A stretch of DNA of 64,000 nt from Vicinamibacterales bacterium (GCA_965116845.1 OZ220728.1:4920433-4984432), one strand, 5' to 3'. Shown: positions 57,934-60,991, numbered from the stretch's first letter. Made by a program: numbers and translations. The notes: generated from the sequence alone by a model not told the origin.

Positions 57934-58776
57934 GTGACCCCGCGGTGCGCGGCCGTCGAGGAGCTTCGGGAGTCGCTCAAGGAACACGAGACCATTCGCA
58001 AGGAGGTCGAGCAGGCCAGCGTGAGATTGTTTGAACAGCGGCAGCGGGTCGTCGCCAAGGTGATCGAGCCGGTCGAAAGATACGTGAACGGACTGGCGAA
58101 TACGCCCAAGGAGTTCGACAAGTCGGTTCGCGCGTTTCGCATCGAGGTCAATCGGTTCGAGGGTACCGTGCAGCGCCTCCGAGCGGAAGCCGCCAGGTCC
58201 GAGAGCATCGGTGGTGGCGTGGGATTGGCCGGGGCGACGGCCGGGATCGGTTTGGCTGCTCTCGGCCCATCCGCGGCTCTGGCCGTGGCGACTACGTTCG
58301 GTACGGCGTCGACGGGAACGGCAATATCCGCCTTGTCTGGTGCCGCGGCCACCAAGGCCGCCCTTGCCTGGCTCGGTGGCGGCGCGCTCGCGGCTGGCGG
58401 CGGCGGAATGGCAGCCGGCAACGCGCTCTTGGCCCTGGCGGGTCCGGTGGGCTGGACGATCGGCGGGCTTGCGCTCGTGGGCTCCGGCGCTTATCTCCAC
58501 TACCGCAACGGCGTACTCGCTCGGGAAGCCGTGCAGGAACGTATCCGGGTTGAAGGCGAGGTCCTTTCCCTGTGGACGGCCTACCTGGAGATCGAGGGGC
58601 TCGGAGCCAGCACGCGGACGTATACGGAGGGCACGCTGGCTTCGCTCGGCTGGCTCTGCGACTGCGCGCCGCGTGACTACCGCCGGTTCGATGAGGGACA
58701 CAAGGAGCGTCTTGCCGCGCTCATCAATCACATCCGCTCGCTCAGCGAATTGATCCGGAAGGAGGTTGCTTTGTGA
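57934..58776 (+). CDS. Hypothetical protein A: coiled-coil N-terminus + glycine-zipper membrane region (280 aa)
   Basis: GTG start. The N-terminus is a charged helix. The central region reads GGGVGLAGATAGIGLAALG...AALAWLGGGALAAGGGGMAAGNALLALAGPVGWTIGGLALVGSG. The protein-like composition contrasts with Arg/Pro-rich junk in the other frames. Its stop overlaps the start of gene B. Confidence 0.6.
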   Translation: MTPRCAAVEELRESLKEHETIRKEVEQASVRLFEQRQRVVAKVIEPVERYVNGLANTPKEFDKSVRAFRIEVNRFEGTVQRLRAEAARSESIGGGVGLAGATAGIGLAALGPSAALAVATTFGTASTGTAISALSGAAATKAALAWLGGGALAAGGGGMAAGNALLALAGPVGWTIGGLALVGSGAYLHYRNGVLAREAVQERIRVEGEVLSLWTAYLEIEGLGASTRTYTEGTLASLGWLCDCAPRDYRRFDEGHKERLAALINHIRSLSELIRKEVAL

Positions 58777-60233
58777 AGCGGTCTCCTGCCGATCGGGTCG
58801 GGTCGCATGTCTCCGCACAGGTCACTGCCGCATGGGTTTCTCTGGACGCTGAGTATCGCGCCGGCGAACTCGCCGACTCACTGCGGGGTCAGGACCGCGC
58901 GTTTCTCGGCGCGATGCGGGAATTGCAGGTCGTCCGGGATTTCGTGGGATCGCCCGGAAACATCCTCGGCAGCACGGACACCAAGCATGGCGAAATCGCC
59001 GAGCAGGTCCACGTAGGTGTGAACCGTGCGCGAGACGTGCTCTACGGGAGGGATCCGGCGGCCACGTTCGACCGGGTTTCGCGCACCGGGCCGGTGGACT
59101 ACCGAGTGGCCGACGTGGACATTCAGTCCAAGTACTACAACGGTCTGCGAAGTACCCTGGACGGTGTTGCAGCCCACGCGGACAAGTACCTGAGCTTCGC
59201 CAGCGAGCGCGGTCGCTACCACATTCCGGCTGACCAGCACCAACAGTTGGAGGAGCTTCGCAGGACGGGCAGCATCGAGGGTCTGTCCGGCCGGAGCGCT
59301 GCCGCGATCGAGCGTCGAGTCGAGGGTCTGGAACGGGCGACGGGTCGCTCGGCCAACGACCTGATCGAGCCGGCCGACGCCGACTACGCTGAGGTTCAGC
59401 GGGGGCGGGTTCACGACACGCTTCAGGACCGTGAGGACGGACTAGCTCGGGAGAAAGACGATCTGCGGCAGGCGGCGCGGGCGGGACACGGCCCGTCCCT
59501 GGCCGGACTGGGCACGGCCGCCGCATTCGGGGCGGCGGCTGGTGGCGGCGTTGGCTTGGCGCAGGCGATCTGGGTGAAGTGCCGCGAGGGCAGGAACCCG
59601 TTTCGAGGAGAATTCTCGATCCAGGACTGGCAGGACGTCGGCGTCGTGGCGGCGCAGGGTACGAGCGGCGGCGCAGTCGCCGGAAGCGCCGTCTACGTCC
59701 TCACCAACTCCACGGCATTGGCGGCGCCGTTCGCCGGCTCACTGGTCAGCGCCCTGATGGGCGTCGGAGCGCTCTTGAGGGACCATCACGCTGGAACGAT
59801 CGATGGCGATCAGTTCGTCGAGATGGCGCACATCGTAGCCATGGATGCCGCCATCGCTGGACTGGCGATCGCGGCCGGCCAGACGCTCGTCCCGATCCCG
59901 ATGCTCGGCGCTCTACTCGGGAGCCTTGCCGGGAGACTGGTCGCGTCAGCTCTTGGGGACGGCCTCGGAGAATCGGCGTCCGCATTGGCCGCAAGGCTCG
60001 CCGAGTACGAGCGGGACGCCTTTGGGCAGCTCGACGAGGAGTACCGAGCCGTCGTGCTACGGTTGGACGCTTGGTTCGGCAACCTGGAGCACTTGGCTGC
60101 AACCGCCTTCGATCCGGAGACGAACACCACCCTCCGGCTGAAGGCCAGCATCCGAGTCGCAGGCACCCTGGGCGTCCGCGAGGATCGCATTCTTCGTACA
60201 ACCGGCGATCTTGACGCGTTCATGCGGGAGTGA
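58773..60233 (+). CDS. Hypothetical protein B: ~230-aa soluble N-domain + Gly/Ala-rich multi-helix membrane region + helical C-terminus (486 aa)
   Basis: The GTG is preceded by GGAAGGAGG (58757-58765) and overlaps the stop of A (GTGA). Conserved-looking blocks are TKHGEIAEQVHVG, GPVDYRVADVDIQSKYY and RYHIPADQHQQL. No family recognised. Confidence 0.65.
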   Translation: MKRSPADRVGSHVSAQVTAAWVSLDAEYRAGELADSLRGQDRAFLGAMRELQVVRDFVGSPGNILGSTDTKHGEIAEQVHVGVNRARDVLYGRDPAATFDRVSRTGPVDYRVADVDIQSKYYNGLRSTLDGVAAHADKYLSFASERGRYHIPADQHQQLEELRRTGSIEGLSGRSAAAIERRVEGLERATGRSANDLIEPADADYAEVQRGRVHDTLQDREDGLAREKDDLRQAARAGHGPSLAGLGTAAAFGAAAGGGVGLAQAIWVKCREGRNPFRGEFSIQDWQDVGVVAAQGTSGGAVAGSAVYVLTNSTALAAPFAGSLVSALMGVGALLRDHHAGTIDGDQFVEMAHIVAMDAAIAGLAIAAGQTLVPIPMLGALLGSLAGRLVASALGDGLGESASALAARLAEYERDAFGQLDEEYRAVVLRLDAWFGNLEHLAATAFDPETNTTLRLKASIRVAGTLGVREDRILRTTGDLDAFMRE

Positions 60234-60991
60234 AGGTGGACCCACTGCGCGATTCGCTCGACGGCCTGTCGCCCTCACGGTACGTTGCGACGTTGTCTGA
60301 GATCGCGCACGTGGATGGATTCCATCCGGCCGAGCGAGACCTCCTCGACCAACACGCCGCCCTGACGAATCCGGTCCGACCGACGGGAGCCCAACCCCGA
60401 GGGGACGGCATCTGGGACGGCGCCGCCGACGTTGATGCACGGCACGCGTACCCTTCCTGGAAGGACAATTTAGAGGGGAGCGACCGACCCGACAGGTGTG
60501 ACGAGGAACGCCTGCCGGAGGCCGGCGACAATCACGACATGCGCTTCCTGAAGCCTGACGGGCTGGGGTATCCGGGCACACTGGTCGCTTTCGAGCTTCC
60601 TGTCGAGTCGGTCGGGAGCTACGACGATCTGATCGAGACGATCCAGAAGCGCGCCCGGGAACGGACGCCCAGACGCGCACAGCACCACTGGATTCGCTAC
60701 GAGGAGTCACCGAGCGAGGCTGTTGTCTTCGTGGTCCGCTACGCTTCGGAGAACACCGAACGTGCCGAGAGACTTGCCCGGGAGCAATTGGAGCCGAGGA
60801 TTCTCAGGAAGGAACCGATAGTTCTGGACTTCGGCGGAATGGACATCGCCACCCAGAGTTATCTTCACGCGCTGTTGTTCAGTGCCCTGCGCCTCGCATG
60901 GGCAAGACAGAGCTTCATCTACGTCGTGAATGCGAGTTCGCCCGTCCGCAGCGGCATCGAACTCGTCGAAGACTACGCGCTCGGGGGCTAG
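60230..60991 (+). CDS. Hypothetical protein C: TerB-like N-terminus + STAS-like (DUF4325-like) C-terminus, no TM (253 aa)
   Basis: The GTG overlaps the stop of B (GTGA); an alternative GTG at 60236 has GGGAG 6 nt upstream. The N-terminus reads YVATLSEIAHVDGFHPAERDLLDQH. The C-terminus reads EPIVLDFGGMDIATQSYLHALLFSAL...VVNASSPVRSGIELV. Confidence 0.6.
   Translation: MKVDPLRDSLDGLSPSRYVATLSEIAHVDGFHPAERDLLDQHAALTNPVRPTGAQPRGDGIWDGAADVDARHAYPSWKDNLEGSDRPDRCDEERLPEAGDNHDMRFLKPDGLGYPGTLVAFELPVESVGSYDDLIETIQKRARERTPRRAQHHWIRYEESPSEAVVFVVRYASENTERAERLAREQLEPRILRKEPIVLDFGGMDIATQSYLHALLFSALRLAWARQSFIYVVNASSPVRSGIELVEDYALGG

Follow-up and report, generated by a model that had tools for sequence, protein, structure and literature searches.

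A partly decayed Dionysus-like cassette of the PDC-M09 family in a Vicinamibacterales genome, and a third open reading frame made by genome decay

Introduction

Three open reading frames (ORFs), here named A, B and C, follow one another at positions 57934-60991 of a 64,000-nucleotide (nt) stretch of DNA from a Vicinamibacterales bacterium (GCA_965116845.1 OZ220728.1:4920433-4984432; the whole stretch is referred to as the window). Do they encode a defence system that has never been described? An earlier reading, made from the sequence alone, had considered them the best candidate for one, A and B being glycine-zipper membrane proteins that could be placed in no family and C a TerB-like/STAS-like cytosolic sensor. 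The analysis presented here leads to another answer. A and B are a catalogued candidate anti-phage pair, PDC-M09, related to the Dionysus system of Pseudomonas aeruginosa, and they represent no new kind of system. The locus is a Dionysus-like cassette, partly decayed, and its third "gene" is a product of genome decay. The features on which the argument rests are the following.

57934-58776, plus strand: gene A, ORF of 280 amino acids (aa), PDC-M09A/DinC-family protein
58757-58765, plus strand: Shine-Dalgarno sequence GGAAGGAGG, 5' of the B start codon, from direct reading of the sequence
58773-60233, plus strand: gene B, ORF of 486 aa, PDC-M09B protein, probable remote DinA homologue
60230-60991, plus strand: ORF C, 253 aa, an open frame, not a coherent gene

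Results

Genes A and B are members of PDC-M09

The three ORFs lie on the same strand, with the coordinates and lengths first reported for them. Direct inspection of the sequence likewise showed the GTGA stop/start overlaps of 4 nt between A and B (58773-58776) and between B and C (60230-60233), and the Shine-Dalgarno sequence ahead of B. A GTG at 60236, which public gene calls use as the start of C (251 aa) and where relatives have ATG, is at least as likely a start codon as the one at 60230. In a scan of 57200-61200 no sigma-70 promoter was detected, although the sigma-70 consensus may not apply to the host phylum, and no intrinsic terminator was found.

Both proteins were assigned by the PADLOC models. 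A matched the PDC-M09A model PDLC04407 over almost its whole length (E 5.2e-101, residues 6-278 on model positions 9-280 of 282) as well as PDLC04406 (E 3.1e-84), and B matched the PDC-M09B model PDLC04409 in the same manner (E 1.3e-149, residues 10-484 on model positions 6-478 of 480) as well as PDLC04408 and PDLC04410. Gene B directly follows gene A on the same strand, which is the PDC-M09 arrangement. A also gave a very weak match to PADLOC LeoBC (E 0.07). Searches of A and B against Pfam, NCBIfam and PHROGs returned nothing meaningful, the PHROGs matches of A being weak and falling in Gly-rich parts of tape-measure proteins, and profiles of full-length B, of A and of the B N-domain compared with PDB sequences gave nothing below E 0.09. 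The description of A and B as unplaceable is thus correct as regards Pfam, NCBIfam and the PDB, and wrong in that both are full-length members of PDC-M09 with relatives in Dionysus. Profile hits to a described system had been named in the sequence-only reading as the observation that would speak against novelty, and the PADLOC matches are such hits.

PDC-M09 is a PADLOC phage defence candidate (PDC), represented in PADLOC-DB v2.0.0 by models PDLC04406-04410 (Payne et al., bioRxiv 10.1101/2024.01.29.577857). It belongs to a set of 145 candidates nominated from genes embedded in BREX, DISARM and type I restriction-modification (RM) loci, and it is listed in the supplement as the two-gene cassette CAS_00055, with 380 occurrences in RefSeq (bioRxiv 10.1101/2024.01.29.577857). 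A later study in which several PDCs were assayed left out PDC-M09.

A is a homologue of DinC and B is probably related to DinA

Dionysus of P. aeruginosa consists of three genes, DinA-DinB-DinC. DinA (557 aa) combines a "MAEBL-like" soluble part with a transmembrane domain, DinB (211 aa) is TerB-like, and DinC is alpha-pore-former-like with four transmembrane segments; all three genes are required for defence (bioRxiv 10.1101/2025.09.30.679545). When DinC was compared with the PDC-M09A model, a match was obtained over most of both sequences (E 8.4e-25, 85.8 bits, residues 35-295 on model positions 6-267 of 282), and DinC also scored 63.8 bits with an A-family hidden Markov model (HMM) built here. 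Direct BLASTP of A against DinC gave E 9e-7 with 56% identity over 62 aa, and the core ASTGTAIS..LAWLGGG.LAAGG is common to both. By these sequence comparisons A is a clear, true homologue of DinC. The Dionysus paper never mentions PDC systems and applied a PADLOC hit threshold of >100 bits (bioRxiv 10.1101/2025.09.30.679545), so that its authors would have missed the link between DinC and PDC-M09A, because 85.8 bits is below it. No mention of a link between A and DinC, or between PDC-M09 and Dionysus, was found in the literature searched.

The relationship of B to DinA is more distant. Alignment of the B-family profile with DinA by hhalign gave a probability of 89.9% (E 1.7e-6, 271 columns, with 399 of the 557 DinA residues compared). 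In this alignment E77, D109 and Q118-x-K120 of B fall on E, D and Q-M-K of DinA, and H72 is unmatched. B is probably a remote homologue of DinA, a relationship with moderate support from sequence profiles. DinA H326A could not be mapped onto B, as its numbering disagrees with the sequence in the supplement.

Predicted architecture of the two proteins

The AlphaFold model of A (mean predicted local distance difference test score, pLDDT, of 62) contains confident helices at residues 2-94 and 172-275, and the Gly-rich part between them (90-185) is unmodelled. Residues 91-188 are nearly uncharged, with up to 76% Gly/Ala/Ser/Thr and 19 small-xxx-small-xxx-small motifs, and a Kyte-Doolittle value above 1.6 is reached in a single 19-residue window. 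As modelled, A is a bundle of helices interrupted by a hydrophobic glycine-zipper insert at its centre (residues 91-188). The helical N-terminus, Gly/Ala-rich stretch and helical tail initially read from the sequence were therefore recovered by AlphaFold and hydropathy.

For B, AlphaFold (mean pLDDT 67) predicted an alpha/beta N-domain at about residues 20-240 (pLDDT 80-93 for about 30-240), Gly/Ala-rich helices of moderate hydrophobicity at 243-395, as seen also by hydropathy, and a helical bundle at the C-terminus (401-485). The architecture proposed earlier for B, a soluble N-domain followed by Gly/Ala-rich helices and a helical C-terminus, agrees with this model. Residues 243-395 would provide about four to five membrane helices, with the N-domain in the cytoplasm.

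Conservation in B pointed to the N-domain. Among 103 homologues that are 23-45% identical, the only invariant residues of this domain are G66, H72, G73, E77, D109, Q118 and K120 (B as reference), a pattern which, judged from the alignment, looks like an active or ligand-binding site. E77 belongs to a helix, D109 precedes a strand, and Q118-x-K120 is part of the strand that follows, an order that recalls the PD-(D/E)xK nucleases. Such a fold was considered and set aside, the lead coming from inspection only: no significant match was obtained by Foldseek (PDB, BFVD), by PDB profiles or in Pfam. A ClyA-like fold was set aside for A in the same way, since the structural matches are insignificant and profile searches gave no sequence match. 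The pores ClyA, AhlB and SmhB were the sole functionally coherent group among the Foldseek matches of A in the PDB, none of them significant (E 0.59-2.8, TM-score of about 0.33 or less). As neither protein has significant Foldseek neighbours, we claim neither fold.

More than 300 homologues of B were found in a word-indexed search, with 56-100% identity among the 120 matches listed. A profile of the N-domain run against 1.84 billion proteins retrieved 387 clusters; the 150 listed are family members, nearly all with the architecture of about 480 aa, the other forms being a few fragments, two A-B fusions and two variants. No bridge from the N-domain to an annotated family was seen among these 150 of 387 clusters. 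In one variant (P0494) the N-domain is joined to a non-membrane, repeat-rich C-terminus. The other (P0505) has a lipoprotein-like signal peptide before the N-domain and a weak match to PADLOC LeoB (Eleos, dynamin-like; E 2.7e-6).

Membrane-disrupting effectors are common in abortive-infection systems, and this architecture could be read in that classical sense, A and/or B opening pores in the host inner membrane so that depolarisation and death come before the end of the phage cycle. The long glycine-zipper small-xxx-small segments of both proteins are typical of membrane-inserting, pore-forming helices, A is predicted to form a bundle with a hydrophobic insert and finds ClyA, AhlB and SmhB among its structural matches, and the Dionysus authors class DinC as an alpha-pore-former, likening it to proteins of the ClyA/Hbl/Nhe/AhlB type (bioRxiv 10.1101/2025.09.30.679545). 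However, those structural matches are insignificant, and the Dionysus data argue against host killing. There, plating of phiKZ-like jumbo phages is reduced >10^6-fold with adsorption unchanged, infected cells are not permeabilised and survive, and membrane-perturbing abortive infection, which was the authors' own first hypothesis, was unsupported by their data (bioRxiv 10.1101/2025.09.30.679545). The membrane-perturbing, abortive mode of action put forward in the sequence-only reading is disfavoured by the behaviour of this related system, and we consider it unlikely for A and B.

The A-B pair is linked across at least nine phyla and is often followed by a TerB-like gene

The genomic context of the pair was studied in 80 B-bearing loci, returned by a scan in which each species was represented by a single genome. 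At least nine phyla are covered: Acidobacteriota, Gemmatimonadota, Latescibacterota, Chloroflexota, Poribacteria, Spirochaetia, Proteobacteria, Cyanobacteria and Actinomycetota. A lies immediately 5' of B in 74 of them, and in four of the six exceptions B is at a contig edge. Natural A-B fusion proteins also exist (P0364, 876 aa; P0472, 758 aa).

Directly 3' of B, a third-gene HMM detected a compact protein of 121-146 aa (about 130 aa) in 35 of the 80 loci. This gene is present in nearly all loci where B is at least 48% identical and in none of the cyanobacterial clade, which keeps A-B without any conserved third gene; the pair can therefore persist without one. Loci that lack the TerB-like gene had no other conserved third gene, only lineage-restricted ORFs of non-coding appearance. 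Fifteen of 16 third-gene proteins matched Pfam TerB (best E 9.6e-7) and 14 of 16 matched DUF533, the DUF533 match of relative L001 (25.3 bits) being under the curated cutoff of 29.6. The best PDB match was 2ou3, a COG3793 tellurite-resistance protein, at E 0.27. Of the three window genes whose co-occurrence had been put forward for testing, A and B travel together; of C, only residues 1-44 recur 3' of B in other loci, where they belong to the TerB-like gene.

The flanks of the pair vary between loci; toxin-antitoxin pairs, transposases, RM genes and a type IIG-like methyltransferase are found in them. When 249 flanking ORFs, taken from 34 loci, were scanned with PADLOC, scattered methyltransferases, SspE, HEC-06/09, LmuB, AriA, GajA, PtuA, IetA and MADS were returned, an observation that is qualitative only because it has no baseline. 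The pair was also found on five IMG/VR contigs, beside integrase, repressor, CII-like, baseplate, tape-measure and tail-fibre genes, which indicates that A-B also travels as prophage cargo. The initial view is upheld that A and B form a single operon, that their products are membrane-associated, that the DNA was acquired horizontally and that the whole follows the logic of a defence system.

This context could also be explained by a role outside immunity, either as a Ter-type membrane-stress or envelope module or as a mobile-element function such as superinfection exclusion at DNA entry or a lysis/holin-like activity. The third gene is TerB-like, and TerB stems from a stress-resistance operon; the pair occurs inside temperate-phage regions; A has the weak matches to tape-measure proteins mentioned above; its neighbours in the window are metabolic genes; and the assignment of PDC-M09 to defence comes from gene context only. 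That context is nevertheless one of BREX, DISARM and type I RM loci, and A is homologous to DinC, which is needed for a demonstrated phage defence in which adsorption is unchanged. Moreover, the patchy spread over at least nine phyla with varying flanks is typical of defence cargo, not of housekeeping genes. A non-immune role is, in our opinion, unlikely.

ORF C is a chimera of three parts

What, then, is the third ORF of the window? Searches of C with Pfam PF05099 and its clan gave no TerB match, so a complete TerB-like domain was not found. Comparison with the relatives divided the ORF as follows.

60230-60362, plus strand: stump of the TerB-like gene (first 44 codons), 86% aa identity to the L001 third gene over residues 1-44 only
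60363 to about 60514-60524, plus strand: former non-coding DNA of about 150-160 nt, now read through (C residues 45-95)
60515-60991, plus strand: 3' fragment of a resident HATPase_c + STAS-like gene (last 157 codons, C residues 97-253)

These alignments identify ORF C as a chimera of TerB-like stump, read-through segment and resident gene tail. DNA homology between the window and its relatives runs to 60362 and resumes at 60363, but 254 nt further on in L001, L003, L004 and L005. This offset reveals a deletion in the window that removed codons 45-129 and left the TGA stop out of frame. By blastn the read-through segment matches L004 9845-9955, L003 9836-9881 and L001 9891-9991, all 3' of the stop codons of the third genes; it carries the palindrome CCTTCCTGGAAGG, and it has no protein homologue and no Rfam family. 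This non-coding segment after the third-gene stop could be a cassette end or a 3' regulatory element.

The remaining part has another origin. Over residues 97-253, C shares 86-96% identity with the C-termini of HATPase proteins of 326-426 aa (P0122, P0124 and P0125), in which HATPase_c is the N-terminal and STAS-like DUF4325 the C-terminal domain, and nt 60515-60991 are 89-90% identical to L092, L090 and L091. The C tail matches Pfam PF14213 (DUF4325) weakly (E 0.002, with 18.3 bits where the cutoff is 23), and a precomputed PF14213 assignment exists for two of its homologues (P0128 and P0228). The tail is thus the STAS-like DUF4325 found at the C-terminus of HATPase_c proteins, and the HATPase part is missing from the window. 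The HATPase-STAS gene was also considered as a regular partner of A-B and rejected, no homologue being found beside the pair in any of the 80 loci. The tail is a gene fragment that is in frame with the stump by chance and lies outside the A-B system. As the chimeric ORF recurs in two separate assemblies, it is no assembly error.

It follows that C is not a gene of the operon, since only its residues 1-44 belong to the conserved third gene, and that the supposed TerB-like/STAS-like cytosolic sensor was never one protein: its two halves are the stump of one gene and the remnant of another, resident one. ORF C serves as a warning that a deletion together with an insertion junction can yield a translationally coupled, domain-bearing ORF.

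In metagenomes the HATPase_c + STAS-like gene occurs in several truncated or chimeric forms. In P0123 the N-terminus of a XerC/D-type integrase is fused to nearly the 3' part that the window retains, and in P0238 the N-terminus of the HATPase_c + STAS-like gene is joined to its own last 40 or so residues. Integration or recombination may have a hot spot in the middle of the gene; some of these forms, on short contigs, could instead be assembly artefacts. The intact proteins P0125 and P0124 gave a weak PADLOC match to the N-terminal region of DISARM DrmA (E 1.3e-6 and 1e-4, respectively), and at L090 one intact HATPase-STAS gene lies near a RloB/AAA_21 pair. The resident gene that the island disrupted might be related to defence in its own right.

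The pair lies in a reduced island

The insertion history could be read from L092, in which an intact HATPase-STAS gene comes directly after the orthologue of the pyrroloquinoline quinone (PQQ)-dehydrogenase gene of the window (73% aa identity). Homology of the window to L092 stops at 57244 and starts again at 60515 (89% nt identity), so that 57249-60514 is an insertion in place of the intergenic region and of the first 780 nt of the resident gene. The features of this region are:

57249-60514, plus strand: inserted island between the resident PQQ-dehydrogenase gene and the HATPase + STAS-like 3' fragment
57320-57799, plus strand: integrase remnant, Arm DNA-binding domain only (PF13356, E 3.8e-8, residues 51-110), no catalytic domain
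60991-61021, plus strand: REP-like palindromic element with a 12-bp stem, in the resident flank and not part of the cassette

The integrase remnant described at first sight is therefore real and reduced to its Arm domain, and the cargo is indeed A/T-richer than its surroundings, with a GC content of 62-70% across about 57000-61250 and of 71-79% in the flanks. The same locus is found in another Vicinamibacterales genome (L003 1-9840, OZ253576.1), with the 3' end of the PQQ gene, the integrase-arm remnant (84% DNA identity between window 57432-57630 and L003 631-825) and a longer island. Besides an intact A-B-C, that longer island carries an AlpA-family regulator (E 2.9e-16) and two ORFs with weak matches, one relaxase-like and the other of the GIY-YIG type. 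The window island looks like a shortened form; it is a reduced derivative of an integrative element, possibly a mobilisable one. The 64-kb window contains no tRNA or tmRNA gene (ARAGORN), and the island was thus not inserted at a tRNA gene within it.

Past the end of ORF C, the REP-like element that had been noted is real and repeated. The family GGAGTCnGCnCC-N7-GGnGCnGACTCC has five copies in the window against 0.06 expected, at these positions:

16815-16845
30189-30219
30273-30303
35001-35031
60991-61021

The last copy folds at -31.7 kcal/mol (z-score -4.66), and homology to L090 and L091 extends to 61009, into the element. The nearby IS630 was not backed by Pfam: the ORF at 63749-63946 (minus strand) has no transposase match there, only a weak one to DUF6566 at E 0.09, and probably continues past the window. 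Outside the window, about 5 kb past C and a few genes beyond the island, the same contig carries a PhdYeFM antitoxin with a PIN toxin (L081 16663-17411).

The decay seen in this island could mean that the module is a non-functional relic, A-B persisting merely for want of time to decay. The integrase is reduced to its Arm domain, the TerB-like gene has lost 254 nt, the island is shorter than its L003 counterpart, the third gene has in DinB a counterpart that is essential in Dionysus, and no sigma-70-like promoter was seen, with the reservation about the host phylum made above. On the other hand, A and B are full-length and free of frameshifts, every family-invariant residue is present (B being the alignment reference), and the GTGA junction and the Shine-Dalgarno sequence are kept; the cyanobacterial clade retains A-B with neither a TerB-like nor any other conserved third gene; and the same arrangement occurs in two assemblies. 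We regard a relic as quite possible, although it is not the reading we prefer.

Discussion

Our preferred reading is that A-B is a PDC-M09 cassette, a mobile module of two membrane proteins from the same broader family as Dionysus and working by analogy with it; we give it a probability of roughly 0.55. In Dionysus neither early phage infection vesicles nor phage nuclei are formed, DinA and DinC gather in foci at the early-vesicle site, and in an AlphaFold 3 prediction the C-terminus of DinA is bound by DinC (bioRxiv 10.1101/2025.09.30.679545). The present data establish the family membership, the homology to DinC, the co-occurrence and fusion of A with B, the chimeric nature of C and the insertion history; membrane localisation, an A-B complex, an anti-phage role and the mode of action are drawn from the analogy and from the anatomy of the two proteins. 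B would sit in the inner membrane through its Gly/Ala-rich helices, with its conserved N-domain exposed to the cytoplasm, where the invariant His/Glu/Asp/Gln-x-Lys site may serve as a sensor or a catalytic site. A would be a bundle of the alpha-pore-former type held by B, probably through the C-terminal region of B, as suggested by the Dionysus prediction. On infection, the A/B complex would act on a membrane associated with the infecting phage and block an early step, and in the clade of the window a small TerB-like cytosolic protein would be a third, translationally coupled component. As for the history of the locus, an integrative element inserted 3' of the PQQ-dehydrogenase gene and destroyed the 5' part of the HATPase + STAS-like gene; later the integrase decayed, and the 254-nt deletion took two thirds of the TerB-like gene and made the 253-aa ORF C.

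Several points weigh against this reading. The source of PDC-M09 calls all 145 of its candidates untested (bioRxiv 10.1101/2024.01.29.577857), and the name "PDC-M09" was not found in the main texts of the literature searched. DinA scored only 18.8 bits with the B-family HMM and had no match to the PADLOC M09B models (399 of 557 residues compared), and the canonical third gene reached 16% with DinB by hhalign, the two having no more than a TerB-like repeat in common. Foldseek returned no match at E <= 0.001 for the model of A in the PDB or for B in the PDB or BFVD, and the Gly-rich segments of both proteins are marginally hydrophobic, so that we infer their insertion into a membrane. The neighbours of the pair are ordinary hydrolase and dehydrogenase genes, with no defence island in the window. 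Since DinB is essential in Dionysus and the TerB-like gene is cut here, the window copy may be inactive. Finally, Dionysus acts on vesicles of Pseudomonas jumbo phages, and infection of the Acidobacteriota-like host by such phages would have to be assumed.

A wider view, which we consider doubtful, is that PDC-M09 and Dionysus might be two branches of one ancient, multi-phylum membrane immune machine. Its core would be A/DinC and B/DinA with a TerB-like protein as an optional regulator, the E77/D109/Q118-x-K120 site of B would define a new enzymatic or ligand-sensing domain, possibly nuclease-like and without detectable relatives in PDB, Pfam or BFVD, and this domain would link the sensing of infection to a glycine-zipper pore-former that attacks phage-derived and not host membranes. 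If this were true, the mechanism would not be limited to jumbo phages of Pseudomonas.

Three results are of use: the link between PDC-M09 and Dionysus, the existence of PDC-M09 in a three-gene form with a TerB-like gene, and a conserved site of B at which experiments can be aimed. The homology of A with DinC ties an untested candidate to an experimentally validated system and supplies it with a testable mechanism. With it, the Dionysus-type architecture is no longer confined to Proteobacteria but reaches at least nine phyla as well as prophages, and the conserved polar site of the B/DinA N-domain is the first target for mutagenesis.

Several known systems resemble the locus in part. Like A, the alpha-pore-forming toxins ClyA, Hbl, Nhe and AhlB are elongated helical bundles with a central hydrophobic segment; in contrast to them, A shows insignificant structural matches and no sequence relationship, and it has no secretion signal and would act inside the producing cell. 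Bunzi, Shango and the ter operon tie a TerB-like domain to membrane-linked defence or "membrane surveillance", and the third gene of the relatives is likewise TerB-like. A and B have no PADLOC matches to the components of Bunzi or Shango, however, and the TerB matches of the third genes are weak, the window keeping only 44 residues of the domain.

PDC-M09 is the family of the window pair, whose two proteins match its models end to end in the same order and on the same strand. It is defined as two genes, whereas the clade of the window (Acidobacteriota, Gemmatimonadota, Chloroflexota and others) adds the translationally coupled TerB-like third gene, for which there is no PADLOC model.

Dionysus differs from the locus in several respects. 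The dinA-dinB-dinC order is not found: the genes are cyclically permuted, A-B-C corresponding to DinC-DinA-DinB. DinA has an extra repeat or coiled-coil insert (its "MAEBL-like" part) and lacks His72 of B; DinB has 211 aa against about 130 aa for the canonical third protein, and orthology of the two cannot be demonstrated. The intact TerB-like gene that Dionysus needs is broken after 44 codons in the window. Dionysus was reported from Gamma- and Betaproteobacteria, whereas the relatives of the window locus come mainly from Acidobacteriota, Chloroflexota, Cyanobacteria and other groups. The kinds of component are nevertheless alike: DinA and B each join a soluble to a membrane domain, DinB and the canonical third protein are small and TerB-like, and DinC and A are helical, alpha-pore-former-like proteins with a Gly-rich hydrophobic core.

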